Of a DNA stretch of 37,146 nucleotides, positions 2,507 to 23,324 are shown one piece after another. Positions within the stretch are counted from its first letter, which is position 1. Each line of letters starts with the position of its first letter. Below the pieces are notes generated by a model. It was given only the letters and a program-made list of their open reading frames with translations. It did not search any database and had not been told where the DNA came from. Position numbers and translations under genes: made by a program. Origin of the DNA: an uncultured bacterium (GTDB lineage: Bacteria > RBG-13-61-14 > CAZOMR01); assembly GCA_964580655.1 (NCBI GenBank), contig CAZOMR010000002.1, forward strand, positions 1 to 37,146. The letters are read 5' to 3'.

Positions 2507-2536
2507 ATTCGGTGCAACTTTTTTACAAGGGTGAGG
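2507..2536 (+). promoter_or_regulatory. 30-nt conserved element, copy A (ATTCGGTGCAAC-N6-ACAAGGGTGAGG)
   Basis: 27/30 identical to 7295-7324. It lies 9 nt upstream of the ATG at 2546, at the first + strand gene of the island. Confidence 0.6.
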
Positions 2537-2545
2537 GATAGAGTG

Positions 2546-2689
2546 ATGCAAAGGCGTCGTAGAAAACGGATTAAGCTTCTCTGGGATGAATACCGATTAA
2601 CCAAGCAATCGTCCGAAGGGCAATGGTGGTTGATCGCGGAGCCGGACCCTCCGGCCTGGTTTCTCAAACACGAGCTGAAAGTCCTATGA
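2546..2689 (+). CDS. small Arg-rich hypothetical protein (47 aa)
   Basis: ATG at 2546, preceded by GAGGG 7 nt upstream. Product is MQRRRRKRIKLLWDEY.... Its TGA overlaps the ATG at 2686 (ATGA), which suggests translational coupling to the next ORF. It is below the ORF-track size cut-off. Confidence 0.35.
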   Translation: MQRRRRKRIKLLWDEYRLTKQSSEGQWWLIAEPDPPAWFLKHELKVL

Positions 2690-3117
2690 CAACTGACTGG
2701 GAGCTTGGAGAGGATAAAAGCCCGGCTCTTTCGCATATAGAGGAGATTCTGAAGGAGCTGGAGGTGCTCAAGAGGGTTCATCTGCAGGCGCTTTTCGCGC
2801 GCGATGAATCCGGCGCAGTCGGGAAATCGGCCAGCCTGGATGACAGCCAGATAAAGAAGGTGACATCATATCTTAGCCTGGTGGAAAAGATGGTGAGGAT
2901 ACTTGAACGCCGGGAAAAAATACGAGAGAGCACGCTTCCAGGAGAAGCTCCGTTGAGCGTGGTGCTCCAGGTTCTGAGAGAGATTCCCTTATTCAGGGAC
3001 GCCCTGGACAATCCCGAGGTTCAGGAGCAAATTATGATTTTGCTACGAAAAAAGCTCTACGAGAAGAACCTGATGCAGGATGATGAGCCTAGGCCTGGAG
3101 GGGAGGATCAATCATAG
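2623..3117 (+). CDS. hypothetical helical protein; function unknown
   Basis: ORF-track ORF. The likely true start is the ATG at 2686 (MTTDWELGED..., 143 aa) because of the ATGA overlap with the upstream small ORF. The sequence looks alpha-helical or coiled. I recognise no motif. Confidence 0.5.
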   Translation: MVVDRGAGPSGLVSQTRAESPMTTDWELGEDKSPALSHIEEILKELEVLKRVHLQALFARDESGAVGKSASLDDSQIKKVTSYLSLVEKMVRILERREKIRESTLPGEAPLSVVLQVLREIPLFRDALDNPEVQEQIMILLRKKLYEKNLMQDDEPRPGGEDQS

Positions 3118-4340
3118 GAGCAGTTGCAGGATTGCTCTGGTCCGGGCAGACCCAGTTCACGGTGCATGTCCACCGTCTCTTTGCAGAGCCCGATCTTGTT
3201 GACCTTGAGCCGCTCCATGAAAAACTCATAGATTCGCTTCCGCTCATTGAAAGGAATCCGGATACGGTTGTCCGGGTCGTGTTGGTCCTGGCCATACTTG
3301 AATACCCCGGAGCCGTAGCGAGCGAATTTGAGCAGGTTCTTGAAATAGCGAAGCGTGCCCAGGGTTACTGTTTCCGGCTCAAGTTCATTGATAGGCTCGA
3401 TGAGCTCCTGGTAATATCGGGGCCAATCTTTGACAGGGATAATAGGATCAATGCGCAACCGCAAGGACCAGCCAGCGGCCTTGAGTTTTGCCGCGGCCTC
3501 AAGTCGCTTGAGCGGAGAGGGACTCCCCTTTTCGAACCGCCGGGATACCTCAGGTGCATTGATAGAAAAGCTGGTGATTACACGGTCGGTTGGAGAAAGC
3601 TTAAGCAGGTTTTTTATCTTTGTTGATTTAGTCAACATAAGCAGTTTGTGCCGCTTCTGGTCTGCGAAAAGCGGCACTATGTTCAAGCTAAACCCGGTAT
3701 CTTCATCCCAGACAAGGCTGTCAGACAACTCCCCCGAGTTAAGCATCGAGGGCTTCTGTTGCGAGATCAACCAGTCTCGTATCTCCTGAAACATGCGCGC
3801 CGTATTGGAGAAGACCGTAGGCGAGGGGTAATGCCGGAGGGTCAGATTCAAATAGCAATACTGGCATTCGTAAGGACAACCGTTGGCATGGGCGAGAATG
3901 AAAAAGTGGGGACACACGATCCCTTCAGGGGTCTTGTCAAAGTAGTGAATGAAGCGCGTATAGCGCTTGCGCTCGATAAACCCGGGCTTGATTCCCTTTT
4001 TGCCTCTGGGCACAAAGAGCTTCTGCTGTTTCTGCTCTATTCGCTTCTCCTCGCGCTCCTTTTTTTGGCGGTAAGTGCCCATGGTAACATGGGCCTTCCA
4101 GGCCCGGATACTGCCCTCCTTGAGCCCGAAATGTCTCGCCACATCGGGCAGGGCCATGTCCGGGTTCGCATCCATGAAATCCAGCACCGCCCACCGCAGG
4201 TCAGCGGCCATACGCTGATACTCCCGCTCCGATGCCTTTTCAAGCTCCCGGCGCAACTCCATCCCTGCTTCCTCTATCTCGGCCTCAGTCTGGGTTCTAT
4301 CCCAGTCCTTATCCTTCGAGTGTCCAGAATTATCCTTCAT
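3108..4340 (-). CDS. spore photoproduct lyase (SPL)-family radical SAM protein with N-terminal HTH-like extension
   Basis: CX3CX2C motif in HANGCPYECQYCYLNLT. Blocks LLMLTKS, SFSINAPEVSRRFEKGSPSPLKRLEAAAKLKAAGW and RIDPIIP align well with my recollection of Bacillus SplB (GCMGHCHYCYLQTT, RFSINADYV...GTSPLDKRIEAAVKVAKAGYPLG, VAPII). The first ~130 aa are extra: an acidic/coiled segment, an HTH-like LPDVARHFGLKEGSIRAWK, and a Lys/Arg-rich linker. Confidence 0.85.
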   Translation of the reverse strand: MKDNSGHSKDKDWDRTQTEAEIEEAGMELRRELEKASEREYQRMAADLRWAVLDFMDANPDMALPDVARHFGLKEGSIRAWKAHVTMGTYRQKKEREEKRIEQKQQKLFVPRGKKGIKPGFIERKRYTRFIHYFDKTPEGIVCPHFFILAHANGCPYECQYCYLNLTLRHYPSPTVFSNTARMFQEIRDWLISQQKPSMLNSGELSDSLVWDEDTGFSLNIVPLFADQKRHKLLMLTKSTKIKNLLKLSPTDRVITSFSINAPEVSRRFEKGSPSPLKRLEAAAKLKAAGWSLRLRIDPIIPVKDWPRYYQELIEPINELEPETVTLGTLRYFKNLLKFARYGSGVFKYGQDQHDPDNRIRIPFNERKRIYEFFMERLKVNKIGLCKETVDMHRELGLPGPEQSCNCSYD

Positions 4341-4429
4341 CGGCTATTCCTGCTTGATGGGAATGACCTCATTATTCAAAATCTCTGCTTATATGTCAAG
4401 GCTGAAAGTTTTATTTCAATCAAATTAAC

Positions 4430-5077
4430 ATGACGGAAAAAACTCAAACAGTTGACCACGGCAATAAATATCTCAAGCTCCTTTTGCGCAAGGCCATGCT
4501 TTCTCGCATTCATCCTCAAACTGCACTGGATTTATTCGCAGGCAGAGGGGAGATTGCCCGCGTATTGTATCAAGAATTCGAGGAGTTGTATTGCGTGGAA
4601 AAAGATTCGCGAAAATTCGCATCCCTGGAAAAAAACTTGCCAAGGGTCTCTAGCCCACGCATTCATCTTCACAGGATGGATAACCGCTTATTCCTGCAAA
4701 AGATGGTGAAGGATATTCCTCAAATCAACCTGGTAGATTTCGACGCCTATGGCTCGCCTAACCTTCAGGTCAAGACCTTCTTCGCCCACTACCGCCTGGA
4801 AGGACCGACCCTGATATTCGCCACCGATGGCGGCAAAATATCCTGTCAGCGAGGCCGCCGCTTTTCGCCCGGGCTTTACTCTTCATGTCCATATCCTTCG
4901 GGCTCAAACACCGGTGGCACTGGATACAACCCTGTCCTGGTACACGGATATGAAAAGCTCATCCGGCAATTCTGGCTCGAGATGGCACATACCCATAGCT
5001 TTCGCATAGAACTCTTCAAAATCCTCTGGAAGAAAGGGAAACAGGTAGCTTATTATGGACTCCTCATATCCCCCTGA
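4430..5077 (+). CDS. class I SAM-dependent methyltransferase (Trm1-like / TcmP-like); target unknown
   Basis: Motif I-like ALDLFAGRGEIARVL, then EKD, then LVDFDAYGSP, which resembles the DPFGS(P) motif of Trm1-type N-methyltransferases. It is divergent from the radical SAM gene across an 89-bp spacer. Confidence 0.6.
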   Translation: MTEKTQTVDHGNKYLKLLLRKAMLSRIHPQTALDLFAGRGEIARVLYQEFEELYCVEKDSRKFASLEKNLPRVSSPRIHLHRMDNRLFLQKMVKDIPQINLVDFDAYGSPNLQVKTFFAHYRLEGPTLIFATDGGKISCQRGRRFSPGLYSSCPYPSGSNTGGTGYNPVLVHGYEKLIRQFWLEMAHTHSFRIELFKILWKKGKQVAYYGLLISP

Positions 5078-5831
5078 TAAACCCGAAGGAACACCTTGTC
5101 CAGGCTCCAAGGCTTTAGTAACGGAGCAAGGAGAATTCCAGGGATTCTGCTTCCGGATGATCCCGACAGAGAAGCTCCGCCCAAACCCTTGGAACCCCAA
5201 CCGGATTTCTACGGAGAACTATCGAAAACTGAAAAACGCCATTGCCGAACGGGGAATGCTCAGTCCGATTCTTGTCAGGCCAAGAGAAAACTACTTTGAG
5301 ATCGTGGATGGCGAGCACCGCTTTAAAATCGCAAGGTCCCTGAAGATAAAAGAAATTCCCTGTTTCGTGGCAGAGCTGGCTGATACCGAGGCCAGGATCA
5401 AAACCCTTCAGCTCAATGGTCTGCGTGGTGAAAACGAGCCGGAAAAACTTGCCCGGCTCATCCAGGACCTGAACCTTGAATATGTGCTCGAAGACCTTGA
5501 GCAGGTCCTTCCCCTTGACCGCTATGACCTTCAGGCATCCCTGGACATGCTCGAACTCATGGAACAAAATGACCAGACAACCCGCCTTGAAGATGAAATG
5601 GAACAAATGCTCAAACAGGTTATCTTCTCCGTCGTGGTCACAAGGGAGCAGAAGAACCTCATTGAGCATGCACTGGCACAGATGCGCAAGTCCAGAGCAT
5701 CATCACCTGTCCGCCAAAGCCCTGCAAAGGCTGAAGCACAGGCAGAAGCTGAAAGCACTGATGATCATAAAATTCCAGAAGGCCAGCTGATTGCTGAAAT
5801 ATGTGAATTCTATCTCGCAGGAATAAAATGA
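5055..5831 (+). CDS. ParB N-terminal (ParB/Srx) domain protein in the small-terminase position
   Basis: IPTEKLRPNPWNPNRIS...LKNAIAERGMLSPILVRP...YFEIVDGEHRFKIA is a typical ParBc signature including the DGxHR box. The stop overlaps the terminase ATG (ATGA at 5828-5831). An alternative start is the ATG at 5157 (MIPTEKL). Confidence 0.8.
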   Translation: MDSSYPPDKPEGTPCPGSKALVTEQGEFQGFCFRMIPTEKLRPNPWNPNRISTENYRKLKNAIAERGMLSPILVRPRENYFEIVDGEHRFKIARSLKIKEIPCFVAELADTEARIKTLQLNGLRGENEPEKLARLIQDLNLEYVLEDLEQVLPLDRYDLQASLDMLELMEQNDQTTRLEDEMEQMLKQVIFSVVVTREQKNLIEHALAQMRKSRASSPVRQSPAKAEAQAEAESTDDHKIPEGQLIAEICEFYLAGIK

Positions 5832-7264
5832 AATACCTTTCCACCCGTCAGGCTGTTCTCAAAGAATGGCTGGAATTCTTTGAAATTCAAGCAGAGAGAA
5901 AAAATCTCGCCAACCCCTTCTGGTTCATTACAAGGGTGCTCAGGTATCAGCTCAAAGATTTTCATCGCCTCTGGTGGCTCTTCCAGGAAGAACATCCCAG
6001 CTCCCTGATCCTGGCCCCGCGCGGACACGGCAAGTCCACCATTCTTAATATCGCCTATTCTCTCTGGCACCTGATCCAGAATCCGGATATCAGGATTCTC
6101 ATCGTCTCCAACACACAGGCACAGGCACAGGCATTTCTCAGGGAGATCAAGCGTCACCTGGAAGGCAATCCCGACCTAAAAAAATATTACGGAAACCTCT
6201 GTGGCACACCCTGGAGTGAAAACGAAATTGACATCTCCGCACGCAGACTCATGACAAAGGAAGCCTCGGTCACGGCTATGGGCATGTACGGCCCCGTCAT
6301 CGCCCGGCATTATGACCTGATAATCCTTGATGATGTCATTGACGAAGAAAACGGATCAAGCGCCCGGCAACGCGCGAAAACCCTCATATGGTATTACAAG
6401 GAACTGCTTCCCACCCTGGAGCCGCACGGCAAGATACACCTCATCGGAACCCGCTATCACTACCTCGACCTCTATGGCCACCTCATGGAGCGGGAATTCA
6501 AGAAACACACACTGATCTCCCGCGCTATACAGCCGCCCACGCCCCAGAGCTTCGGAAATGGAGCAAGCGAGCAGAAAAAAGAAAAAGCGCTCTGGGAAGA
6601 AAAATTCTCCCTGGAGTTCTTGCTAAAGAAACGAGAGCAATCCGGATCAGCTATATTCAACTCACAGTATCAGAACGATGTGGAAGCCATGAAAGGGGCT
6701 ATATTCAAGGAAGAATGGATACAATACTTTGATATGCTTCCACCACAGCTCAACAAGTTCCAGGCCGTAGACCTGGCCATCAGCCAGCGCGAACATGCGG
6801 ACTACTTCGCACATGTCACAATAGGCCAGGATCACAATCAGTGTTTATATGTACTTGACGCTTTCCGCGGACGGCTGAGCTTTGAAAAACAATTCAGAAC
6901 CATCAAGCGGCTTTATCAGAAACATCATTGCCAGGACTCTCCTGTGCTTCGCATCGGGGTTGAAGCAAACGCCTATCAGGAGGCCATGGCACAAAAACTT
7001 CGCTCAGAAACAGGGCTCCCCGTGAAATCCGTGTTTCGCCATACTGATAAAATTACACGCGCATACCGGCTCCAGGCACAGTTTGAAAACGCGAAAATCT
7101 TCTTTCCGCACCAAGGCGCCGAGGACCTTATAGAGGAACTCTTGCTCTTTCCAGAAGCACCTCACGACGACCTCTTTGATGCCCTGGAGTGCGCGGCCTC
7201 TTTTGCTCAGAATGCAAATACCTACGAGCAAATATTCAGGCCATGGCCGGACGTCTCTCCGTAG
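5828..7264 (+). CDS. terL: terminase large subunit
   Basis: Walker A in ILAPRGHGKST, Walker B in DLIILDDVIDE, and a C-terminal nuclease-type HDDLFDALECA motif. 478 aa, located directly upstream of the portal gene. Confidence 0.9.
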   Translation: MKYLSTRQAVLKEWLEFFEIQAERKNLANPFWFITRVLRYQLKDFHRLWWLFQEEHPSSLILAPRGHGKSTILNIAYSLWHLIQNPDIRILIVSNTQAQAQAFLREIKRHLEGNPDLKKYYGNLCGTPWSENEIDISARRLMTKEASVTAMGMYGPVIARHYDLIILDDVIDEENGSSARQRAKTLIWYYKELLPTLEPHGKIHLIGTRYHYLDLYGHLMEREFKKHTLISRAIQPPTPQSFGNGASEQKKEKALWEEKFSLEFLLKKREQSGSAIFNSQYQNDVEAMKGAIFKEEWIQYFDMLPPQLNKFQAVDLAISQREHADYFAHVTIGQDHNQCLYVLDAFRGRLSFEKQFRTIKRLYQKHHCQDSPVLRIGVEANAYQEAMAQKLRSETGLPVKSVFRHTDKITRAYRLQAQFENAKIFFPHQGAEDLIEELLLFPEAPHDDLFDALECAASFAQNANTYEQIFRPWPDVSP

Positions 7265-7294
7265 TTATTAATCCAGTCATCTTCAAAACACATA

Positions 7295-7324
7295 ATTCGG
7301 TGCAACAAATTTACAAGGGTGAGG
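7295..7324 (+). promoter_or_regulatory. 30-nt conserved element, copy B
   Basis: ATTCGGTGCAACAAATTTACAAGGGTGAGG, 27/30 identical to 2507-2536. It sits in the 94-bp terminase-portal gap, 35 nt upstream of the portal GTG. Confidence 0.6.
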
Positions 7325-7358
7325 AGGGGAAAAAGATTTCCTTTCCAGGGAGGATCCG

Positions 7359-8702
7359 GTGTTCAGAAAAAAGGAATTGAAAAAACGGATTGAGAATTTG
7401 GAGCTTTCTCTAGCCAAAAGCCAGGAATACATTACTGACATCCTGACATTCCAGGCCGGGGACAAGGCTCTGGCCGCTCAAGCCTCGCCTAACCCCTACA
7501 ACACCCGGGAAAAGCTGATAGAGGAGTTGATCCGCAAATACAAGGGCTACGCCCGCTACGGAAATCAGACCATCCAGCGGATAGTGGACACCCGCGCCGC
7601 TTTCACCATGGCAGGCGGTCTTAAAGCCGTGGCCCAGGACACGGAACGCTATACAGGGGAACTCGCCTTCATTCGCGATCTAATTGAGCTCAATCAGCTC
7701 GACGGCCAGTTCGGTCAACAGCTTGCTGTTGAAAAGGAGTTGGAGGGCCAGGTGCTGATTGTCCTGGACTGGGACACGGCCTCGGAAAACATCCGCCTTC
7801 GCTATATCTCATGGAACGACACGCGTTACCAGGTTCACTACGCTGATCATCTATACAGCCAGATCACAAAAATCACATACAGGTATGACCCGCAGGCTTA
7901 TCATACAGAGGGATCAATACCATCGCCCGCGGCGGGCGCCAGGGAGGTGGTCATTCCTGCGGACCGGTCGGTCTTCATCAAGTTCAATGCCCGGATAAAC
8001 TCAAGGGAAGGAATCCCCACTCTCTCCGGACTCCTGGTGGAAGCTGAAGAGATTGACCAGGCACTGCGCGACTGGCGCCAGATAAACCGCTATTTCGCTT
8101 CGCCCACTCCTTACTTCAAAACCGAAGACCTGCAGGAAGCAAAAGACCTTTATGACCGACTGCTCAGCCCAAGAATAAACTGGAAGATCGGAAAGGTCTT
8201 TGCCGGTCCCGCTGAATTCCGACTGGTGGGAATGGATTACGCCGGCGCCGAGAGCATTCGACAAGAAATCGAGACCAAGATCAAGATACTAGCCGGAGGC
8301 GCGGGCGTGCCCATCCAGTTCCTGGGCTTCCCGGAATTCATGAGCAACCGCGCTACTGCGGAAAATACCATGGAACCAGTGGCACTGATCAGCATCTCTG
8401 AACAGCGCTCCTGGCTCGGGGGCTTCAAAGAGCTCTTCGACAAGGCAATAGCCCTGCGAAATCTTCATGCGCAGGCCGGATCGCCAGAATTGAAAACCGG
8501 GGTCGTGGACCCGAAGATGAAATTTATCACACAGGCCCAGATTGATCGCCTGATCCGGCTATATTTTCCGCTCTGGCAAAAAAGCGCCATCTCTCTGAAA
8601 ACCTTGCTGAGCTTGCTCCCGGACATTGACCCGCAATCGGAGATGGAAGGCCTCGGGGAGATCAACTCCACCCCGTCCCGGGACAAGGAGGAATGGGCAT
8701 GA
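7359..8702 (+). CDS. portal protein
   Basis: 447 aa, immediately after terL and before the protease/scaffold gene. GTG start with GGGAGGA 4 nt upstream. The reading frame only opens at 7323, so no earlier start is possible. The call rests on position and size. Confidence 0.65.
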   Translation: MFRKKELKKRIENLELSLAKSQEYITDILTFQAGDKALAAQASPNPYNTREKLIEELIRKYKGYARYGNQTIQRIVDTRAAFTMAGGLKAVAQDTERYTGELAFIRDLIELNQLDGQFGQQLAVEKELEGQVLIVLDWDTASENIRLRYISWNDTRYQVHYADHLYSQITKITYRYDPQAYHTEGSIPSPAAGAREVVIPADRSVFIKFNARINSREGIPTLSGLLVEAEEIDQALRDWRQINRYFASPTPYFKTEDLQEAKDLYDRLLSPRINWKIGKVFAGPAEFRLVGMDYAGAESIRQEIETKIKILAGGAGVPIQFLGFPEFMSNRATAENTMEPVALISISEQRSWLGGFKELFDKAIALRNLHAQAGSPELKTGVVDPKMKFITQAQIDRLIRLYFPLWQKSAISLKTLLSLLPDIDPQSEMEGLGEINSTPSRDKEEWA

Positions 8703-9811
8703 GAACCGGAGCGACATTTACCAGCGCGGCTATCCAGGAGATGGCATCCGGCGAGGTCCGAGCCCTGATCGGCGATGACCGTTATCAGGCCATCAAGGCC
8801 AAAGACCCGCATCCGCTTTTTGTGGCCCTGACCATGGCACATGAAGGTAAAAGCTTTGGCAGAATTCTCGGACGCCGAGGAGCAAAGCAGGGAGCGGAAA
8901 AGATATGGCCGCGCTCGCGCATCCACGAGCTGGTTCAGCGGATCAATACCACATTGAATTCAATGTCTTTATCAGCCGAAAACAAAGGACAGGGCATAAG
9001 CGCCTCCGGGGTGCCGGTATATCTCTTCCACAATCAAGACAATTCTCCTCGAAACCCTGTCGGCCGCGTGATCGCCGCAGTCTCCCGATATGTCAGGGGC
9101 AAGGTTCATGCTATTGGAATAGCTTACATATCCGACCCTGAGGCGAGGAAAGGAATTCGCAACCGCGAGTTGGACACCTGTAGTATCGAGGCCGAACTCG
9201 AATTCCAACGCTCTAGTTCTAATTCAGATACTGCGGATTCACCCGGACGAGCGTGGATCGTGAATGCGGTGCAAAAGATTACAGGGCTCGCGCTTGGCTC
9301 AAAGGCGCTCCAGAGCCCCGGTTTTGCCGATGCCGGTATCCTGGCCGCGGTGCAGGAATTCGACGCGGACACTGATACTTCTAATGAGAAGGGTCAGGTG
9401 CTCGACCTGGAAGAAAGGCTAATAGAAAGGGAAAGGGAGATTCAAAATCTGGAATTGGAAGTGCAACGCTTGAGGCAGGATGCGGAAACGAATCGAAAAA
9501 CCGCGAAGATGGTGGAACTTGGTGAGAAATATCTTGACCGCGCCAACCTCTCACAAACCGAACGGTCTTTTCTCATGGATGAAATTCAAGACATGGCCCA
9601 TTCCTTCGGTGAGAGCAATGAGGAGTTTGAAGCGCAAGTAGCAAGCCGCCTGAAACAACAGCTCAAGCGTCTGGAGAAAATGCGCCGCTACTACTCATCC
9701 ACCTCCTCCATTCCGGCTCCGCCGGAGAGGGGATCGGAGAGTCTGTCCGGGGATCAAGGGATTCTTTCCAACCCACTGATTCCCCGACCTCTTTTTCCGA
9801 AGGACCTATAG
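8699..9811 (+). CDS. prohead protease (HK97/S78-like) fused to a coiled-coil scaffold-like C-terminal region
   Basis: The central segment NPVGRVIAAV...GKVHAIGIAYISDPEARKGIRNRELDTCSIEAEL resembles the prohead-protease core. The C-terminal ~140 aa is a heptad-rich coiled coil (LDLEERLIEREREIQNLELEVQRLRQD...). The ATG at 8699 has AAGGAGG 7 nt upstream and overlaps the portal stop (ATGA). The ORF track starts at 8693. Confidence 0.55.
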   Translation: MRTGATFTSAAIQEMASGEVRALIGDDRYQAIKAKDPHPLFVALTMAHEGKSFGRILGRRGAKQGAEKIWPRSRIHELVQRINTTLNSMSLSAENKGQGISASGVPVYLFHNQDNSPRNPVGRVIAAVSRYVRGKVHAIGIAYISDPEARKGIRNRELDTCSIEAELEFQRSSSNSDTADSPGRAWIVNAVQKITGLALGSKALQSPGFADAGILAAVQEFDADTDTSNEKGQVLDLEERLIEREREIQNLELEVQRLRQDAETNRKTAKMVELGEKYLDRANLSQTERSFLMDEIQDMAHSFGESNEEFEAQVASRLKQQLKRLEKMRRYYSSTSSIPAPPERGSESLSGDQGILSNPLIPRPLFPKDL

Positions 9812-9851: not shown

Positions 9852-10220
9852 ATGGTAACTGAAAGCGGACTAAAACTTCGCACCAAACTGGAAAGCGCGA
9901 AAACCTTGAAGGCTACCACAGGCACTGATGAGACCCACAGCGCTGGCGACATGATCGTGGTGGGTGATACCATCGGTGTCACTGTTGAGGATGTCGGAAC
10001 ATCCTCGGATTTCGTTCTCGTTTATGAGGCGGAAAAAGTCGTGGTACCCAAGGCCACCGGGGCTGGCATCAGCTTCTCTGCGGGAGGCAATGTCTATTTC
10101 GATCCCAACAATAATTGCGTCACCAATGTCAGCACCAGCAATACCAAATGCGGCAAGGCTTTGGAGAGCGCAGGCACCTCCGATGACGAGCTCATGATTG
10201 ACCTCATAGTGCTTTCCTGA
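9852..10220 (+). CDS. DUF2190-family head decoration/cement protein
   Basis: 122 aa. GDMIVVGDTIGVTVEDV...VVVPKATGAGISFSAGGNVYFD...KCGKALESAG...LMIDL matches the DUF2190 pattern. Its position just before the major capsid gene is typical. Confidence 0.75.
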   Translation: MVTESGLKLRTKLESAKTLKATTGTDETHSAGDMIVVGDTIGVTVEDVGTSSDFVLVYEAEKVVVPKATGAGISFSAGGNVYFDPNNNCVTNVSTSNTKCGKALESAGTSDDELMIDLIVLS

Positions 10221-10304: not shown

Positions 10305-11294
10305 ATGCGAGGAAAGATGATCGCTGACTGGAATAAAGTCAACCTTAAGGATTCCGAGGGACAGCACCAGTTTCTCTCTGCTGTACAGTATTTCATGGAT
10401 CGGCCCCGGATCGCCGCGGACCAGATCAGGGCACGAATTCAGGAGTTCACCACCAAAAACGACTTTCCCTCTACCCCCATCGAGGCCATTGCCCGCTACC
10501 ACCAGGTGGAAGAGCCGGACATCGGTTGGGAGCAGGTCTTTGAAGTCATTGATTTCACGAGCTCCCGCAAGAACGGCTTTGACATTCTTGACGTGTCGTC
10601 CGGCTTGAGCTTCAAGGCGATTATGCCCGGAGAAAAAGCCGAGGTCTACAAGATTTCAGGTGAAAAGGTCACGGTAAATTTCGACCTCTTTGGCGGGGCA
10701 CTGGGCTGGTCCAAGCTCTGGTTTGATGACGAGGAATACTGGAAGATTGAGGATACAGCAAAAGAGTTTCGCGCCAGGTGGTATGCCAACAAGGCCCAGG
10801 CTCACTATGACCTTATCTCCTCAAGCAGGGCTGACTCGGATGTGAGCTGGCAGGGAGATGCCTCCGACACCAAGGCTGTGCGTGATGCCGAGACCATAAA
10901 CTATGCTTGCGCGGCCATCCTTGAAGACATGGAGGCCCTTGGCATGGATGTCAACGCCAACTCCCGCTTCATCATCGTGTCCCCGGTTCAGCTCATGGCA
11001 AGAGTTCGCAATGCACTCAATACCACTCTGGCCCAAAGCGCAACGAGTGAAGTGAATTTCAATGTCGGCCTTGCCGTCACCACGCGCTTGAAGAATCAGG
11101 CTCTCACCCAGGCGGAGACATCCCAGTATTTCGTCTGCCTGCCGGGTCGCAAGATCAAAAGCGGCCTGCGCATGGACCTGACCATTCTCAGCGAGCCGGA
11201 CATCCTCGCCTACGCCGAAACCGTGGCTGGCTGGGGACGGTACGGCGCGGCCGTGGGTGAGTCCAAGCAAATTCGCAGATGTGCCACTTCTTAA
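10305..11294 (+). CDS. major capsid protein
   Basis: 329 aa, follows the protease/scaffold and DUF2190 genes. Strong RBS (AAGGAGG) and a GC-rich hairpin just after the stop. The call rests on position and size. Confidence 0.65.
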   Translation: MRGKMIADWNKVNLKDSEGQHQFLSAVQYFMDRPRIAADQIRARIQEFTTKNDFPSTPIEAIARYHQVEEPDIGWEQVFEVIDFTSSRKNGFDILDVSSGLSFKAIMPGEKAEVYKISGEKVTVNFDLFGGALGWSKLWFDDEEYWKIEDTAKEFRARWYANKAQAHYDLISSSRADSDVSWQGDASDTKAVRDAETINYACAAILEDMEALGMDVNANSRFIIVSPVQLMARVRNALNTTLAQSATSEVNFNVGLAVTTRLKNQALTQAETSQYFVCLPGRKIKSGLRMDLTILSEPDILAYAETVAGWGRYGAAVGESKQIRRCATS

Positions 11295-11307
11295 CCCTGG
11301 ATTCAAA

Positions 11308-11323
11308 TCCGAAGGATATGGAG
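11308..11323 (+). repeat. 16-nt box TCCGAAGGATATGGAG, copy 1
   Basis: Exact 16-nt match to 21306-21321. Both copies lie 11-14 nt after a stop codon, in the intergenic space preceding an accessory or lysis cassette. Confidence 0.5.
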
Positions 11324-11325
11324 GA

Positions 11326-11352
11326 GAGGAGGGGATTCGAATTCCCCTCCTC
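11326..11352 (+). terminator. GC-rich stem-loop after the capsid gene (partial terminator, attenuator or RNA-stabilising hairpin)
   Basis: GAGGAGGGGA (11326-11335) pairs with TCCCCTCCTC (11343-11352), giving a 10-bp stem around a TTCGAAT loop. No T-tract follows, so it is not a canonical intrinsic terminator. Confidence 0.4.
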
Positions 11353-11374
11353 CTTCCCTCCCCAAGGAGGATAG

Positions 11375-12136: not shown

Positions 12137-12377
12137 AAGCATAACGGCCTGTCATGTTCCCACCGGGGAGCGGTTTGAATTTATTGTCGACGACGTGGAC
12201 AATGTGCCTGGTTGCGATTGTGGGATGCGGGACGATAGCGTCCCGCACATGTTGAAAAAACCGGAGGGAAAGTTTGACTACAAAGCCAAGACTTACACTC
12301 TCACCTGCCCGGCATGTGGAAAAAGACTCGCCGAGGCCAGGAGAATAGAGACCGAGGATATAAAAAATGTCTCTTGA
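12126..12377 (+). CDS. small zinc-ribbon-like protein
   Basis: 83 aa with a CDCG...(about 35 aa)...CPACG cysteine pair arrangement. It overlaps both neighbours by 11 nt. Confidence 0.5.
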   Translation: MANESITACHVPTGERFEFIVDDVDNVPGCDCGMRDDSVPHMLKKPEGKFDYKAKTYTLTCPACGKRLAEARRIETEDIKNVS

Positions 12378-13515: not shown

Positions 13516-13519
13516 ATCC

Positions 13520-14348: not shown

Positions 14349-14879
14349 ATGGCTTTGACAGATGGCGATTACCTTAAAGTGGCCGCTAAGATCGTGGCCA
14401 CGCTTTTAAGTGATACCAACTCCGGAGGGCTAAGAGAAGGGGACGAGCCCCCGGTCAGGACTATTGAGGCCCGCCTGCCGGAGGAAAACCGGTATTACGG
14501 CAAGCATGAGTTGCCACTGATCGCAGTGGAGGTGAAGGGAAAAAGGGAGGTCCATGAACCCAATATGCGCTGTGAGGCAAAAGTATTCGATGTGGAATTC
14601 ATTGTTCTCACACGGGGCGGGGACCGGCAAAAAGAGAATCAGCAATGCAAGAAGATAGCACATCGTCTGGAGAAAATCTTCCGCGAGCAGAGTCAGAGCA
14701 ACAAGCCATTCCAGGGTCTACCGGATTCGATCGAGGATTCGGAAGGCGTGCTCTTGGCCCGGCTCAGAAACACCTTTTTCGAAGCCGCGAGATCGGAAGA
14801 AGCAAGCCCTAAAAGACCAACGGCAAGGGCTGTCGTCCGCGGAGAACTCTGGATTCCATGTAATCTTGGAACCGATTAG
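14349..14879 (+). CDS. hypothetical; head-tail joining / tail terminator-like by position
   Basis: 176 aa, between the connector and the putative tail tube gene. No motif recognised. Confidence 0.35.
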   Translation: MALTDGDYLKVAAKIVATLLSDTNSGGLREGDEPPVRTIEARLPEENRYYGKHELPLIAVEVKGKREVHEPNMRCEAKVFDVEFIVLTRGGDRQKENQQCKKIAHRLEKIFREQSQSNKPFQGLPDSIEDSEGVLLARLRNTFFEAARSEEASPKRPTARAVVRGELWIPCNLGTD

Positions 14880-16190: not shown

Positions 16191-16202
16191 CAAGGAAAGC
16201 AG

Positions 16203-16589
16203 ATGGCTTATTTGAAAAAGACTGAAGGAGTGCTTTTGATCGAACTGGGCAAAAAGAGGGTTCATCTTCGCTATCGCCAGCCCACAGTGGATGAGATGCT
16301 TAGTGCTTTGGCAATGAAATACCAGTCCCACGATCCGGAGCAACAGGCGGAAGATATCCTGCGGGCCAACCTTGAACTGGGGTTCAATTGTCTTGAGGGG
16401 CTTATAAGCGGGGAGCTGATGATTGACTCAGGCCGCGGACCAGAGTCTTTAAGCAGTGAACCGGGACAGGAAGGTTACAGGCAGGACTGGAAAGAGAGTG
16501 TCAGGAATTCCTTTCCAGCTTTGCTCGTGGCCCTGGGCCAGCATCTCTCGGACATTCCCACCCGCATCGAGGAACTTAAAAAAAAATAG
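16203..16589 (+). CDS. tail assembly chaperone, short (G-like) product
   Basis: 128 aa, directly upstream of the tape measure. The gene ends in CTT AAA AAA AAA TAG, which is a slippery A9 tract. Confidence 0.7.
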   Translation: MAYLKKTEGVLLIELGKKRVHLRYRQPTVDEMLSALAMKYQSHDPEQQAEDILRANLELGFNCLEGLISGELMIDSGRGPESLSSEPGQEGYRQDWKESVRNSFPALLVALGQHLSDIPTRIEELKKK

Positions 16590-16876
16590 AACAGGACATC
16601 CGGGCACTGGCGCAAGGGCCGACTCCGACATGCAAGCATTGTCCGGAAAGGCAAAGCCGCTTTGCACCCTGGACATGCGCAAATTGCCCTGAGGCCACGC
16701 TGGAGAAAATGTCGCCGGACACACTCTGGCTTCTCATAATTCGCCACTTGCGAAAGGCCGGGTACCCCGTGGAAAAAAATCAACTCGGATTCCTCGATTG
16801 GATCAAACTGGGAATCATCGAGATGATCCTGGAACAGCTTGAGTCCGGGCAAGGAGTAACTTATGAAAGACTTTGA
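16203..16876 (+). CDS. tail assembly chaperone, -1 frameshift (GT-like) product
   Basis: A -1 slip on A_AAA_AAA (16580-16586) enters a frame that stays open for 96 codons (IEQDIRALAQGPTPTCKHCPERQSRFAPWTCANCPE...GQGVTYERL) up to the TGA at 16874-16876. That frame overlaps the tape measure start by 14 nt. Confidence 0.65.
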
Positions 16877-17498: not shown

Positions 17499-17521
17499 AG
17501 AGACCGAAGGCTCCAGAGGAG

Positions 17522-18769
17522 GTGACAATGGCAATCAACGTAAAACCGATCATTGCTTATGACAATAAAGTAGCCGGGGCCACGCTCACCGCGAGCAGTG
17601 AGGCCACTGGATACCCGAAGGAGAACCTGCGGGACTGGCGGACATATACGCGCTGGAAGGGCACACAGGCGAACTCAGAGGGTGATATTACCCAGTTGTT
17701 GGAAGATGATTTAGAATCTTTCGGAAAGCCAAGTGGAACATACAAATTAGGCCAGACATTTCTGCTGTCTGGCACAAGCATTATCACAAAGATAACGGTC
17801 AAGCTCAAAAAAATAAATAATCCTGAGGATAGAGTCAAATGTGCTTTATATTCCACCATCGGCTCACCGCCAATACCTGACACTCTTTTAGTGTCTTCAG
17901 ATGACGAGGCAAATCCTACGGATTCTTTTGCAGAATACACTTTTTATTTCTGTCATGAATTGACCGCTGGAATTTATGCGCTTGTCCTCTATCGCACCGG
18001 TGACCTAGATGACACCAATTATTATCAGGTCCGTTTGAAAAGTGACAATCCCTATACAGACGGGAATTTAGTAGAAGATCACCTCTCCGGGTGGGGGTAT
18101 TCGTCCAGTCATGACATGTATTTCAAGGTTGAATTCACCGCCGCATCCGAATGGTTAAAGATAGATGCGGGAGAAGGTGAGACCCTTACTGTCTCCTGTC
18201 TCGGCATATCAGGACATGATCTCTATACGCAGGGCGCGGAGAATATAGTCCTCCAATTCAGCGATGACGATAGTGGCTGGACTAACTGTCTTTCACCCTT
18301 CACACCGAGCGACGATAGTACAATATTCAAGACCTTCGCTATAACCACGCATCGCTACTTTCGTCTCCTGATTCCGTCATGCTATACGGCATCGCCTCAG
18401 ATAGGGGTGCTCTTCATCGGTTCTTATTTTTCCTTTCCAGTCTACCCTGACCCCGGGTTTGACCCGGACGGCCAGGAAAAGGAGTTCAAAGGACAATGGA
18501 GCCGCGAGGGGCATCTACTCGGCATGATCAGCAAATATACGCGCCGGGAAATCTCTGTCCGGTTTCAGCGGCTCACCCCGGATTTTCTCGCTAATACCTT
18601 TATCCCATTCTGGCAAAATCATGTTCCTTCACCCTTCTTCTGGGCCTGGGACACCACCAATCATCCCGAGGAAGTTTATCTCGTGGCGCTGGCCAGGGGA
18701 CGGCTGTCCATGCCTTACACCGCGAACACAAGGTCCCTGGATCTGAACCTTGTGGGAGTGAAGGAATGA
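17522..18769 (+). CDS. distal tail / baseplate-like protein with an inserted beta-sandwich domain
   Basis: 415 aa. The N-terminus TASSEATGYPKENLRDWRTYTRWKG resembles the galactose-binding-like (discoidin-type) signature. An AT-richer insert spans about aa 55-200. The likely true start is the ATG at 17528 (GGAGG 6 nt upstream). Confidence 0.45.
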   Translation: MTMAINVKPIIAYDNKVAGATLTASSEATGYPKENLRDWRTYTRWKGTQANSEGDITQLLEDDLESFGKPSGTYKLGQTFLLSGTSIITKITVKLKKINNPEDRVKCALYSTIGSPPIPDTLLVSSDDEANPTDSFAEYTFYFCHELTAGIYALVLYRTGDLDDTNYYQVRLKSDNPYTDGNLVEDHLSGWGYSSSHDMYFKVEFTAASEWLKIDAGEGETLTVSCLGISGHDLYTQGAENIVLQFSDDDSGWTNCLSPFTPSDDSTIFKTFAITTHRYFRLLIPSCYTASPQIGVLFIGSYFSFPVYPDPGFDPDGQEKEFKGQWSREGHLLGMISKYTRREISVRFQRLTPDFLANTFIPFWQNHVPSPFFWAWDTTNHPEEVYLVALARGRLSMPYTANTRSLDLNLVGVKE

Positions 18770-20748: not shown

Positions 20749-20802
20749 GCCTGACAGGTCATCCAGATACTTCGGACCTGTAGGATAAGGGGAGACAAGG
20801 AA

Positions 20803-21294
20803 ATGGCATGGGATACGATACAGGCGAGCGAGGTTGATGCCAACAGCCCGCTGAACCAGACACTATTTGACAAGATCAGGAGCAACCTGGACTACCTGGC
20901 AGGTAATTTCATCTGCTTCAGCGGAGACAGCCCCGAATACGAATTAATGGCCGGGGACTCCACTTGGTATGCTGTTAAAAGTGGCAAGATATATGTGCCT
21001 TCTGTTGTTGATTCTCTGGAAATCGCAGTAGAAAACATGTTTGTGGAGGCGGGCGTATCTGGAAGGCTCGTCAGGGTAAGGGTTTCTGATGGGGCAGGAG
21101 GCTGGAACAATTCTGACACTGCGACTCCGGGAAGCGCAGGCTACGCCTGGGCTTTTCTGGCTTGCCCTGCCGAAGGTAGCTTCATCGGTGAAGGTGGCTG
21201 GAGGGACTACGAAGTCCAGATGCGACAGAGTACCCTTCAACCCAAAGGAGCTTATGTGAGAAATATTATTTTTAAAGTAAAGAGTATCAACTAG
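20803..21294 (+). CDS. hypothetical; possible tail fibre/receptor-binding accessory protein
   Basis: 163 aa, the last structural ORF before the lysis genes. The N-terminus is EVDANSPLNQTLFDKIRSNLDYL. The call is positional. Confidence 0.3.
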   Translation: MAWDTIQASEVDANSPLNQTLFDKIRSNLDYLAGNFICFSGDSPEYELMAGDSTWYAVKSGKIYVPSVVDSLEIAVENMFVEAGVSGRLVRVRVSDGAGGWNNSDTATPGSAGYAWAFLACPAEGSFIGEGGWRDYEVQMRQSTLQPKGAYVRNIIFKVKSIN

Positions 21295-21305
21295 TCGAGC
21301 ACAAG

Positions 21306-21321
21306 TCCGAAGGATATGGAG
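21306..21321 (+). repeat. 16-nt box TCCGAAGGATATGGAG, copy 2
   Basis: Exact match to 11308-11323. It lies 11 nt after the stop of the 20803 ORF and 16 nt before the first lysis-cassette gene. Confidence 0.5.
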
Positions 21322-21337
21322 TGGTTGATAAGGAGAC

Positions 21338-21652
21338 ATGAGTTTAACAGAGCTCATAATATCATCCCTGGCAGTTGCAATCATGGGCCTGAGTGGAGCG
21401 GTCTATTCTGCATTGAGGTCTAAAGTCATTCGGCTTGAGGACACCAAGGTCGAACGGAATGTCTGCGACGAGCGACATCGGAGCATCTCTGAGGACATTC
21501 AAGAGGTAAAGTCCACGCTCACCGAGGTGAACCAGAGCGTGCGGAGAATCGAGATTCAACTGGCCCGGATGTCCGTAAGACCCTTCGGGTCCGCAGGGTC
21601 CGGAGAACCCGCCAGTCGCATCATAAGCCGGGATGGCCCGCAGAATCTGTAG
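21338..21652 (+). CDS. single-pass membrane protein with coiled coil (i-spanin-like or holin/antiholin-like)
   Basis: N-terminal TM segment LIISSLAVAIMGLSGAVYSAL followed by a helical heptad region. It is immediately upstream of the amidase. Confidence 0.45.
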   Translation: MSLTELIISSLAVAIMGLSGAVYSALRSKVIRLEDTKVERNVCDERHRSISEDIQEVKSTLTEVNQSVRRIEIQLARMSVRPFGSAGSGEPASRIISRDGPQNL

Positions 21653-21660
21653 GAATAAAC

Positions 21661-22251
21661 ATGGAATTGATTATCATTGACCCGGGACACGGGGGCGATG
21701 ACCCTGGGGCTTTAAACATCGAACTCGGGCTGGAAGAAAAAGCCATTAACCTTGCCGTGGCACAAAAGCTATGGGCTCTGCTCTCAGGCCCATCTTGCGG
21801 AACACTAGTGAGGCTGACAAGAACCAGGGACATCTTTGTCTCGCTTTCGAGCAGGACTGATTATGCCAATCATCTCCAGGAATGTTTCCCGGAGACCAGG
21901 GCACTGTTTGTTTCCCTGCACTGCAATGCCTTTTCTGACCCGGCGGTCAGGGGAGTAGAGGTCTTCCATTATCCGGGTTCAAAATCAGGCCAGCGGCTTG
22001 GAGGATTTGTCCTGGATGCCATTACCAGGGCCTTCCCGGACATGCCATCACGCGGGCTGAAAACAAACCCGAATCTTGCGGTGCTGAGGAGAACCCGGAT
22101 GCCAGCGATCCTGATAGAAATGGAATTCATCTCTAACCCTGATACAGCTCGGCTTCTAGCCAGAGAGACCTTTCAGTGGCAAATGGCGCAAAGCATCCAG
22201 GCCGGAATCCAGTCCTGTCTCAAGCCCGAAGAGTCCGCAGGAATTAGCTGA
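21661..22251 (+). CDS. N-acetylmuramoyl-L-alanine amidase (Amidase_3) endolysin
   Basis: IIIDPGHGGDDPGA, EEKAINLAVA, LFVSLHCNAF, GVEVFHY and PAILIEMEFISNP are canonical Amidase_3 blocks. Confidence 0.9.
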   Translation: MELIIIDPGHGGDDPGALNIELGLEEKAINLAVAQKLWALLSGPSCGTLVRLTRTRDIFVSLSSRTDYANHLQECFPETRALFVSLHCNAFSDPAVRGVEVFHYPGSKSGQRLGGFVLDAITRAFPDMPSRGLKTNPNLAVLRRTRMPAILIEMEFISNPDTARLLARETFQWQMAQSIQAGIQSCLKPEESAGIS

Positions 22252-22384
22252 TCTCCTGGTTCCGCGGATGCCCCGGATGCGCCAGTCCGAGGGACCCGGA
22301 GAAAAGGCTTGAGAAAAAACATCCCTGGCAGAAGATCACCTGTCCATGCAGATGGGCCCGGGATTGAGATAAAAGGGACATCCA

Positions 22385-22612
22385 ATGAAGCTTTTCGAAA
22401 AAGATAAAGCATTCAGCAAAACCGCTTTCTGGTTCTCCTGCACCATGGCGCTCACATTGATCTCCACTGCGGCCATCGTCATCAAATACATCCTTGACCC
22501 AGGTCCGGAATTCATCTCAGGGATTCCCGGCATAGCCGGATTACTCGCCGTGCCCAATACGATCCTTGCCGGCGCCTATACATGGGGAAAGAAAATTGAT
22601 CGGCAAACTTAA
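22385..22612 (+). CDS. two-TM small membrane protein (holin candidate)
   Basis: 75 aa with two hydrophobic segments (FWFSCTMALTLISTAAIVI and IPGIAGLLAVPNTILAGAY) and a charged C-terminus (KKIDRQT). Confidence 0.5.
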   Translation: MKLFEKDKAFSKTAFWFSCTMALTLISTAAIVIKYILDPGPEFISGIPGIAGLLAVPNTILAGAYTWGKKIDRQT

Positions 22613-23324
22613 GATAGCCTTTGCAGGGGTGATTATCCTCGCACTCCTGATTGCAGGAACAGGGATTTACCTGCTATCGCATAAACATAAAGGACTTGTC
22701 CGGGAAAACAAGGGTCTTGCCTCGGAAATCGCGGCGCTCCAGTATCGCCTCAAGCTCACTCAAGAGAAGGCCTCAAAAGTTTTACAAAAGAAAGAGTTCT
22801 ATACAAGTCATGCAGAGCCTTCGGAAAGCCAGGAAAAGCCGCTATCCCAGGTCCCTCTTGACTGTAGCCGCTGTTTTGAATCCACGAAAATGGAAATAGA
22901 ATTGGAGGATGAAAAGGGCTGGTGGAGTTACCATGATCCCAATGCCTTTGATGATAAGCCCGGCACATTCACGCTCACAGACCGCTTCTTTTCCGAAGCT
23001 ATCCCGCCGGCAATACCAGATTACGGTCTATCAGGGAAGAAGCCGGCCGAGTCCCTTGGAGGAACCAGAAGAATCCGCCGAAATTCGGAAAAGGCTATCA
23101 GCGCAGGCATCGGACTATCAGGGTATGAACTGGAAATGTCCTACTCCCCATTCGGCATACAAGGAAAAAACTGGTCTCTCGGAATAGAGCTTCGATCACG
23201 CCTCTTATCATCAAGACCCTTCATGCCATCCAGGTCTTTCGGCACGAACTACTCCAATCAACCGGATTTTAACCCGTATACCCTCCAAGCCGACCTCGGC
23301 CTCGGCATTACTCTCCGCTGGTAA
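22566..23324 (+). CDS. membrane-anchored coiled-coil protein with beta-rich, OMP-like C-terminus (spanin-like)
   Basis: TM segment IAFAGVIILALLIAGTGIYLL, a coiled coil (LASEIAALQYRLKLTQEKASKVL), then alternating-hydrophobic beta-strand patterns ending ...LQADLGLGITLRW. The start may be the TTG at 22596, which would reduce overlap with the previous gene. Confidence 0.45.
   Translation: MPAPIHGERKLIGKLKIAFAGVIILALLIAGTGIYLLSHKHKGLVRENKGLASEIAALQYRLKLTQEKASKVLQKKEFYTSHAEPSESQEKPLSQVPLDCSRCFESTKMEIELEDEKGWWSYHDPNAFDDKPGTFTLTDRFFSEAIPPAIPDYGLSGKKPAESLGGTRRIRRNSEKAISAGIGLSGYELEMSYSPFGIQGKNWSLGIELRSRLLSSRPFMPSRSFGTNYSNQPDFNPYTLQADLGLGITLRW

Follow-up and report, generated by a model that had tools for sequence, protein, structure and literature searches.

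To our knowledge, few independent lineages of gene transfer agents (GTAs) are known, and nearly all of the well-studied ones are alphaproteobacterial. GTA particles carry more or less random pieces of host DNA, each too small for the full set of encoding genes, and their production is under the control of host regulatory circuits. As a class, GTAs retain packaging and structural genes only, often distributed over several loci, and they have several independent origins (PMC11841831). The known GTA small terminases (TerS) are deficient in DNA binding (PMC11841831; PMC6854486). New GTA lineages are very hard to find from sequence because they resemble prophage remnants (PMC11841831). Here we describe a 20.8-kb island of phage-type packaging, head, tail and lysis genes at positions 2507-23324 of contig CAZOMR010000002.1 (assembly GCA_964580655.1) from an uncultured bacterium. 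The window that we analyzed is the whole metagenome contig of 37,146 bp, a near-exact copy of which is present in an independent assembly (L001; related loci are given L numbers throughout). We propose that the island is probably a host-fixed, two-module, phage-derived particle regulon of the GTA type, and that it is a strong candidate GTA of a new kind, forming an independent lineage rather than a relative of RcGTA.

Comparison with described particle systems

RcGTA and the other alphaproteobacterial GTAs resemble the island in that their terminase, portal, capsid, adaptor, tube, G/GT chaperone, short tape measure and tip genes form a head-tail cluster of ~15-20 kb. They are also chromosomally fixed and devoid of integrase and replication genes, with further loci and with regulators outside the cluster (PMC11841831; PMC6363796). 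No homology to RcGTA g1-g15 was found, and none of the GTA-family models of NCBIfam and Pfam was matched by the structural and packaging proteins of the island. A preceding sequence-only reading of this DNA had suggested that the island, if functional, would be an independent domestication. The lack of homology to RcGTA-type families agrees with this and makes an independent origin the appropriate frame for the island. In contrast to RcGTA, the island encodes a cement protein, a long tail tube of the T5/P74-26 type and an in-cluster lysis cassette; its packaging module encodes ParB-like, spore photoproduct lyase (SPL)-like radical SAM and methyltransferase (MTase)-like proteins with no recognizable TerS anywhere in the island, and its host belongs to a deep uncultured group.

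The FpGTA of Faecalibacterium is podovirus-like and packages host fragments of 8.4-8.9 kb; its genes form two operons, which may be separated by ~125 kb of chromosome (PMC12946183). Compared by description only, FpGTA and the island are alike as candidate GTAs outside the Alphaproteobacteria with two separable operons. The island is predicted to be siphovirus-like and is known from its genes alone, whereas packaging by FpGTA is supported by experiment. PBSX of Bacillus subtilis resembles the proposed island system in being chromosomal, phage-derived and non-propagating and in forming particles that are released by lysis and package host DNA. PBSX is myovirus-like, carries its own repressor and a late sigma-like regulator inside the element, and is mainly a killing particle. 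The window island, in contrast, has no regulator of its own; a sigma region-4 protein is encoded only in the sister subfamily described below, together with an S24 repressor at one of its loci (L209). PBSX packages chromosomal fragments of 13.4 kb (PMC12946183).

Against isolated phages, the large terminase subunit (TerL) is at most 31.5% identical, the portal protein found no match among 50,697 phage records, and the capsid protein found a single match (31% identity), to an ORF from the Microcystis phage MACPNOA1 head module; the virion module is otherwise without detectable relatives. At the level of structure, the AlphaFold2 model of the 427-aa tail tube matched the P74-26 tube (8ed0, Foldseek E=4.9e-10) as well as the tubes of T5 (pb6) and DT57C (to E=5e-6). 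The matches to T5 and P74-26 extend over most of the length with target-normalized TM-scores of 0.48-0.66, whereas sequence identity is 8-12%. In IMG/VR, a single-sequence scan with TerL found no close relative, and a TerL profile found matches of which the best is 44% identical and which share no other island gene. A tube profile found no relative there, and a capsid profile found one truncated relative (38%). The family is thus close to invisible to virus catalogues.

Other classes of phage-derived elements fit the island less well. The integrase or transposase, attachment (att) repeats, immunity repressor and replication module of a temperate prophage were not found in the island. With Mu-like phages it has only the DUF1320/gp36-like adaptor in common, and there was no rve or transposase match. 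Compared with phage-inducible chromosomal islands (PICIs), including the capsid-forming ones, it lacks an integrase and any credible replication gene but has a full tail module. It is also unlike R- and F-type tailocins in having TerL, cement and adaptor genes, together with genes in the portal and capsid positions, all under constraint.

Gene content and genomic setting of the island

The island, flanked by a gene of CoA-ligase type on the left (868-2259, minus strand) and by mutS2 on the right (23385-25883), has 26 open reading frames (ORFs), 25 of them on the plus strand, which comprise packaging, head, tail and lysis genes and are all intact (Table 1). The late gene set that the sequence-only reading had placed at 2507-23324 was confirmed in coordinates and content by Pfam, PHROGs and structure searches. 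Its description of the ORFs as intact also held. No main ORF has an internal stop, the four ATGA start/stop overlaps are all real by frame analysis, and the programmed frameshift site is kept, with an A9 run at 16577-16586 and a -1 extension that is conserved in relatives. The named run of genes was upheld for TerL, the ParB-like protein, decoration protein, DUF1320 adaptor, tube, fibre and endolysin, whereas portal, scaffold and capsid were assigned by position and by matches to PHROGs of unknown function. A tape measure candidate does follow the G/GT genes, but it has only 211 aa and its role is inferred. The SPL-type radical SAM gene was recovered by family match, with its strand corrected to minus (3108-4340), and the placement of ParB in the TerS slot agrees with PF02195 and Spo0J matches at 5055-5831, directly before TerL.

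The left flank carries host-like genes (CoA-ligase-type and pilin-like), and the right flank carries genes of metabolic or repair type (MutS2, Exo_endo_phos, carboxyltransferase, CobQ, GT2 glycosyltransferase, PabB/C and GDSL-TPR). Among relatives with a name, the best matches of MutS2 come from Nitrospira and Nitrospinota and are 39-41% identical. The G+C content is 0.521 in the island and 0.532 in the flanks, and G+C at third codon positions is also flank-like. Relative synonymous codon usage of the island correlates with that of the flanks at r=0.90, equal to flank versus flank, and tetranucleotide usage at r=0.95, with composition even across the window. Codon and tetranucleotide usage are thus ameliorated to the host and indistinguishable from the flanks, which agrees with the resemblance in base composition that had been judged by eye. 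No transfer RNA genes and no Rfam matches were found in the window, and no att-like direct repeats bracket the island.

Genes for mobility, replication and regulation were sought by Pfam and PHROGs searches of the main island ORFs at E<=0.01. No integrase, transposase or repressor was matched. A single replication family was matched, Replication initiator protein A by o104, at E=0.005 and with 16.9 bits where the cut-off is 27; we read this sub-threshold match as spurious. The idea of a recombinase hidden in other frames was rejected when 121 further ORFs (minimum length 45 aa), taken from all frames of 2260-23384, gave zero matches to Pfam, and NCBIfam added no mobility or replication family among the island proteins. 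With the one spurious match set aside, these searches of main and alternative-frame ORFs confirm the earlier observation that recombinase, repressor and replication genes are missing; nor was any regulator gene found in the window island. Around the relatives, 131 flank ORFs of 22 related loci were pooled for a Pfam scan, in which no recombinase family was matched by at least two ORFs, and no integrase was present in any relative neighbourhood with precomputed Pfam annotation.

Inheritance at the mutS2 site and selective constraint

The closest relative of the island was found in the metagenome-assembled genome (MAG) GCA_975968295.1, in which locus L002 repeats the gene order of the window from o52 through the tape measure gene. 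A second contig of this MAG (L210) carries o104-like, amidase, o75 and o252-like genes followed by MutS2, Exo_endo_phos, carboxyltransferase, o455-like and GT2 genes. The stop codon of o252 and a 25-nt block before mutS2 (the mutS2 promoter block) align with L210 at the nucleotide level. MutS2 of this MAG is 69% identical to that of the window; host flank proteins as a group are 63-84% identical between the two genomes, compared with 49-87% for island proteins. Since the mutS2 junction is orthologous and the divergence matches, these comparisons indicate that the island was already present at this junction in the common ancestor of both genomes and has diverged at about the pace of the host. 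The relative at the same site has the same reduced architecture and is not a full prophage, an outcome that the sequence-only reading had left to be checked in related genomes.

Synonymous sites are saturated (pS ~0.6-0.85), and we therefore report the inequality between nonsynonymous (pN) and synonymous (pS) differences per site and give no dN/dS value. For the capsid gene pN was 0.068 against a pS of 0.605, for the portal gene 0.090 against 0.702, and pN was far below pS for each island gene with a defined estimate. A search for inactivating mutations, also called for earlier, found none. All tests that the sequence-only reading had named as possible refutations, as far as the sequences could answer them, agreed with it.

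Two separable modules and a duplicated upstream element

Tube proteins form 56 clusters among 5.8 billion proteins, all of metagenome or MAG origin, and an exhaustive search with a tube profile found 99 representatives at E<=1e-30 among 1.84 billion proteins. When all window proteins were compared by tblastn with 212 fetched loci, the island resolved into two units, a packaging module (o52 to TerL) and a structure-lysis module with the portal gene first and o252 last. These modules adjoin each other in the window, in L002, L010, L161 and L163, and in the sister subfamily, and they are unlinked in at least six other genomes. On a 480-kb contig TerL lies ~31 kb from the tube gene and ~18 kb separates the modules; a 141-kb contig has the modules in divergent orientation, separated by ~9 kb that includes Fer4 and TMEM43 genes; and in a 68-kb contig the 21-kb structural locus does not include TerL. 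In L176, L187 and L189 the TerL, ParB and SPL homologues are all missing from the fetched locus. In the three loci that were checked for their boundaries (L175, L187 and L189), host genes directly bound the structure-lysis module, namely MshE-type ATPase and SBP_bac_5 genes, hydrolase and DAHP synthase genes, and a polysaccharide deacetylase gene. Two genomes have the packaging module on its own; in one it is next to purD, alr, dnaN and dnaA, and in the other it is within a 768-kb contig. Split loci occupy three separate positions in a neighbour-joining tree of the tube protein, which suggests at least three independent splits, in which the modules came apart repeatedly from an ancestral state of contiguity. 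L041, which carries the packaging module, is MGQK01000080.1 from Deltaproteobacteria bacterium RBG_13_61_14, a name given to a candidate phylum in GTDB; this MAG is a possible lead to the host lineage.

Each module of the window is headed by a copy of a 30-nt element (Table 1), which occurs exactly twice in the window compared with zero copies expected by chance. L002 carries both copies, and a 27-nt core is invariant in the four copies of the two genomes, set in intergenic sequence that defied alignment. Relatives have related motifs upstream of their portal genes. In L161, 45 nt at 89% identity are common to the upstream regions of both modules; in L041 copies precede o143 and o215; and in the split 480-kb genome the upstream regions of both modules have 198 bp in common at 96.5%. 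Folding of the element gave no RNA structure above shuffled controls (z=0.53), and an RNA structure was rejected accordingly. A sigma-70 promoter was also rejected, with no such site reported at either copy, unlike the promoters of the SPL-like and left-flank genes, and the sequence as read by eye did not fit the sigma-54 consensus. We regard the element as a putative regulated promoter or operator that would co-express both units wherever they sit.

A sister subfamily (L208 and L209, tube 45-48% identical) has an island of ~18 kb with the same integrase-less layout. In L209 it sits between topA and a pyruvate formate-lyase gene, and in L208 HGD-D (dehydratase) genes adjoin it on the right. 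These islands start with a sigma-70 region-4 protein (L208 20-394), which in L209 is preceded by a LexA/CI-type S24 repressor (L209 features 1033-1872 and 2380-2889). An o52-like peptide, TerL, portal, other structural genes, a Kelch-repeat fibre and lysis-type genes (Peptidase_M15_3 in L208, PG_binding_1 in L209) follow in that order. SPL-like, ParB and integrase genes are all absent from the L208 and L209 islands. The sigma region-4 protein and the S24 repressor are candidate regulators for the whole family.

A proposed GTA-type particle system and its alternatives

From what the sequences show, namely an intact and constrained gene set, inheritance at the same site, modules that are split in relatives and a cis element in two copies, we propose that the island would work as follows. 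Two transcription units, packaging and structure-lysis, would each be headed by a copy of the element, and a trans-acting regulator encoded elsewhere in the genome would probably act on both copies and switch the units on together. Heads would be built from portal, scaffold, capsid and cement proteins and would be filled by TerL and accessory proteins, presumably by headful packaging. A short non-contractile tail would be added from the DUF1320 adaptor, the T5/P74-26-type tube, G/GT, the 211-aa tape measure and the tip/fibre proteins, and the producer cell would be lysed by the holin-like protein, the amidase and the membrane proteins. The system would thus build, fill and release a small siphovirus-like particle, with nothing else retained. 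As the island has no excision or replication functions, the packaged DNA would have to be cut from the chromosome, and the predicted cargo is host DNA. More tentatively, the island may represent an undescribed GTA lineage in a deep uncultured group, organized as a two-operon regulon in which the ParB-like protein replaces TerS and is coupled to the SPL-like and MTase/TcmP-like proteins. On the same tentative footing, the duplicated element may let the modules drift apart in the chromosome while they are still co-regulated. If the ParB-like protein does define a chromosomal pac site, the island would be a directional exporter of neighbouring host genes, similar to lateral transduction, and not a random packager.

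Several features of known GTAs are found here. Pfam, PHROGs and NCBIfam detected packaging, structural and release genes alone; chromosomal fixation with divergence that tracks the host is seen in one genome pair; and dispersal over several loci is seen in at least six related genomes, although the modules are contiguous in the window. TerS is a point of difference; in GTAs it has no specific DNA-binding domain, and its slot is occupied here by a ParB-like protein with a helix-turn-helix (HTH) region.

Several points weigh against the proposal. Strong purifying selection and host-like codon usage occur in active temperate phages too. The same-site evidence comes from one genome pair, and the distant relatives are all at other chromosomal sites, which could reflect horizontal movement instead of ancient vertical descent. 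With the modules contiguous in the window, a self-packaging unit of 21 kb is conceivable. The flank survey of the relatives reports families matched by at least two ORFs, so that a recombinase at a single locus would escape it. The earlier claim that ordinary chromosomal genes lie on both sides, leaving no early region outside, is supported by the host-like flanks, but the left flank in the window is short (2.26 kb) and the exclusion of an early region draws mainly on the relatives. The portal, capsid and tape measure are inferred assignments, and particles, packaged DNA and directional export (below) are predictions from sequence. The ParB-like HTH protein suggests sequence-specific DNA recognition, unlike the TerS of known GTAs (PMC11841831).

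This last property, together with the contiguity of the modules in the window, L002, L010, L161, L163 and the sister subfamily, would suit a still-mobile minimal temperate phage or satellite that relies on host Xer or helper functions and packages its own ~21-kb genome from a pac site recognized by the ParB-like protein. The differing chromosomal sites of the relatives and the prophage-like CI/LexA-type repressor at one sister locus (L209) point in the same direction. We nevertheless consider such an element unlikely, given that the window has no integrase, excisionase or credible replication gene and no att-like flanking repeats, and that no recombinase family recurs beside the 22 related loci or is seen in the annotated neighbourhoods. 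The mutS2 junction is moreover orthologous between genomes whose host genes have diverged as far as the island, and the unlinking of the modules in at least six genomes, with host genes adjoining the structure-lysis module in the three checked, is incompatible with the packaging of a unit genome. A defective prophage remnant, left by deletion of the early region, still undecayed and without current function, is very improbable. Such a deletion derivative is expected to hold late genes only, as the island does, and gene content alone cannot separate a GTA from a remnant (PMC11841831). However, 26 of 26 ORFs are intact, the programmed frameshift site included, and pN is far below pS across the island while synonymous sites are saturated. 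The same reduced architecture also recurs in dozens of diverged loci and in the sister subfamily, and a non-coding element of ~27 nt is invariant in four copies amid unalignable intergenic DNA.

It is also rather doubtful that the island encodes a domesticated particle with another role, either directional export of DNA beside a ParB-defined pac site or a killing or lysis device in which packaging is incidental. Constraint on the capsid, cement, portal and terminase genes argues that DNA-filled heads matter, and no parS-like site was identified. On the other hand, the island combines a complete terminase and a ParB-like DNA-binding protein with a lack of excision and replication functions, its lysis cassette is conserved, and the tight linkage of the SPL-like and MTase/TcmP-like genes hints at DNA chemistry beyond packaging.

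The GTA-type reading that we favour has consequences beyond this contig. Same-site inheritance that tracks the host, repeated unlinking of modules beside host genes, and a conserved duplicated cis element may serve as criteria for telling domestication from decay. The candidate promoter, the ParB/radical-SAM packaging module and a sister subfamily with a sigma-like activator (and an S24 repressor at one locus) provide experimental handles. If the system is functional, GTA-type gene exchange would reach uncultured lineages that are known only from metagenomes, and virus catalogues would prove to miss such elements systematically.

Genes of the packaging module

The packaging module has the order o52, o143, the divergently transcribed SPL-like radical SAM gene, o215, the ParB-like gene and TerL. 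Its best-conserved sequence across both subfamilies is the o52 core, IKxLWDEYRxxKQxxEGxWWLIAEPDPPAWF, and in the sister subfamily an o52-like peptide is encoded directly upstream of TerL. The o52 gene copies of L003 (~3244-3330) and L012 (~546-659) have an in-frame stop in or beside the WW motif, which could be decay, sequencing error or recoding. For o143 no family match was found in Pfam, PHROGs or NCBIfam, and an ORF of ~130 aa takes its position in L004, L007, L161 and L163. The protein is possibly TerS-like or an accessory protein; homology to sigma region 4 was rejected, as there is no similarity to the sigma protein of the sister subfamily.

The SPL-like protein has a CxxxCxxC motif at residues 155-162, and its gene is linked to o215-ParB-TerL in at least 12 loci. 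It is transcribed divergently from these genes, and the same intergenic region of L002, L004, L007, L161 and L163 retains TTGACA-N17-(C/A)ATAAT; expression of the gene probably does not depend on the shared 30-nt element. On the opposite strand, a 261-aa ORF (3648-4433, plus strand) has an ATGA overlap with o215 that mimics the real junctions; it has no family match, and we treat it as spurious and probably not a gene. The o215 protein, conserved in all packaging modules, weakly resembles SAM-dependent methyltransferases and three-Cys-motif partner (TcmP) proteins. The ParB-like protein combines an N-terminal ParB domain that carries the DGEHR motif with the HTH region. In a family alignment of 37 sequences, TerL has the invariant P-loop (G66, G68 and K69) and all conserved acidic columns. 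In the literature we found no prophage paper that connects an SPL-like gene with ParB and terminase, and TcmP is mentioned merely in passing in prophage papers.

Some further genes recur beside the modules of relatives. A DUF523/2-thiouracil desulfurase gene lies beside either module in four genomes (L002 1182-1601, L003 8175-8621, L173 20804-21253 and the P0004 contig), and extra SPL-like or radical SAM genes are present at L002 1547-3643 and L003 8757-9911; together they hint at nucleic-acid chemistry tied to the island family. AbiEi/AbiEii toxin-antitoxin (abortive infection) genes adjoin either module in three genomes (L003 294-2476, L007 3380-4255 and L203 1-188).

Genes of the structure-lysis module

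The portal protein is 53-85% identical in relatives and is always encoded by the first structural gene. In the scaffold protein, charged heptad-like repeats in the C-terminal part suggest a coiled coil, and no protease family was detected. A single-sequence AlphaFold2 model of the capsid protein had a predicted local distance difference test (pLDDT) score of 33.8 and was unusable, so that it gives no support to an HK97 fold. Sequence searches of the PDB with the tube profile, with the capsid protein (as a single sequence and as a profile) and with the portal, scaffold, fibre and tip proteins gave nothing significant. The hairpin that follows the capsid gene is possibly an attenuator or an mRNA stabilizer. 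A 20-nt repeat (CAA[A/G]TCCGAAGGATATGGAG) is found at 11304-11323 and 21302-21321, ~10 nt after the capsid and o163 stops, with an inverted copy at 4888-4904; it is not conserved in relatives and may be due to chance.

The glycosyltransferase-like gene is present in some relatives only, and the concanavalin-like gene occupies a variable slot (12367-13515) where seven relatives have an ORF of ~460 aa instead, beta-helix-like where annotated. After the A9 run, the -1-frame extension (o55, ~93 aa) is 44-67% identical in relatives, and the two together correspond to the classical arrangement predicted for G/GT chaperones. By the usual length rule, the 211-aa tape measure would specify a tail of ~30 nm. 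The o163 protein is possibly a fibre accessory or assembly protein. For o104, a holin- or spanin-like lysis accessory is a guess, and o252 is weakly Rz-like.

Table 1. Features of the island in window coordinates, with the evidence for each.
Feature	Position	Strand	Evidence or remarks
Shared element copy 1, ATTCGGTGCAAC-TTT-TTTACAAGGGTGAGG	2507-2536	+	ends 11 nt before first ATG of packaging module
o52, small basic peptide	2547-2689	+	47 aa from ATG 2547; ORF opens at GTG 2531; first gene of module
o143, helical acidic protein	2686-3117	+	55% identical in L002; weakly conserved in L003, L041, L042
SPL-related radical SAM protein	3108-4340	-	PF20903 E=8.8e-22; PDB 4fhg E=1.8e-13; photo_TT_lyase (NCBIfam) below cut-off
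Sigma-70-type promoter of SPL-like gene	4371-4399	-	TTGACA-17-AATAAT; 11/12 positions match
o215, MTase/TcmP-like	4430-5077	+	PF03602 E=6e-5; TIGR04474 E=0.0018, below cut-off; PDB methyltransferase motif E=0.13
ParB/Noc-like protein	5055-5831	+	PF02195 E=1.2e-15; phrog_723; Spo0J 1vz0 E=7.5e-15; 4umk over residues 37-192
TerL, terminase large subunit	5828-7264	+	phrog_38 E=1e-106; TIGR01630 above cut-off
Shared element copy 2	7295-7324	+	ends 35 nt before portal start
Portal protein (putative)	7359-8702	+	position, size; phrog_27684 E=7e-18, function unknown
Scaffold, possibly protease-scaffold fusion	8693-9811	+	between portal and decoration/capsid; weak PHROG matches alone
Head decoration (cement) protein	9852-10220	+	PF09956 E=1.4e-11; phrog_122
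Major capsid protein (putative)	10305-11294	+	phrog_24071 E=7.5e-25
Strong G+C-rich hairpin just 3' of capsid gene	11321-11356	+	minimum free energy -38.4 kcal/mol for 11295-11375; repeat D1
Glycosyltransferase-like protein	11375-12136	+	phrog_1574 E=1.5e-18; PF00535 at threshold
o83, small Cys-rich protein	12126-12377	+	40% identical in L002
Laminin_G_3/concanavalin-like virion protein	12367-13515	+	PF13385 E=3.4e-11
Head-tail adaptor, DUF1320/Mu gp36-like	13520-14293	+	PF07030 E=2.7e-6; phrog_195
o176, neck or tail-terminator candidate	14349-14879	+	position between adaptor and tube in all relatives; no family match
Tail tube, o427, long form, 427 aa	14907-16190	+	AlphaFold2 pLDDT 84.5; PF18906 in relative P0128
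Tail chaperones, G (o128) 16203-16589, GT to 16876	16203-16876	+	-1 shift at A9 run 16577-16586
Short tape measure candidate, 211 aa	16863-17498	+	after G/GT; Ala/Gly-rich; conserved
Distal-tail/tip protein, F5/8 type C-like domain	17522-18769	+	phrog_11633 E=5e-22; PF00754 E=6.5e-6
Tail fibre or tip, 660 aa	18766-20748	+	phrog_11439 E=7.8e-50
o163, conserved protein after fibre	20803-21294	+	kept in relatives; no family match
o104, N-terminal transmembrane segment and charged region	21338-21652	+	hydropathy; 72% identical in L210
Endolysin, N-acetylmuramoyl-L-alanine amidase (Amidase_3)	21661-22251	+	PF01520 E=1.7e-42; phrog_435
o75, two-transmembrane holin-like	22385-22612	+	hydropathy; 86% identical in L210
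o252, membrane-anchored, last island gene	22566-23324	+	phrog_739 E=0.006; transmembrane residues 10-40

Outside the island, the CobQ-like gene of the right flank (window 30599-32164) is missing from the otherwise syntenic L210 flank (7220-9315), which represents a host-side insertion or deletion.

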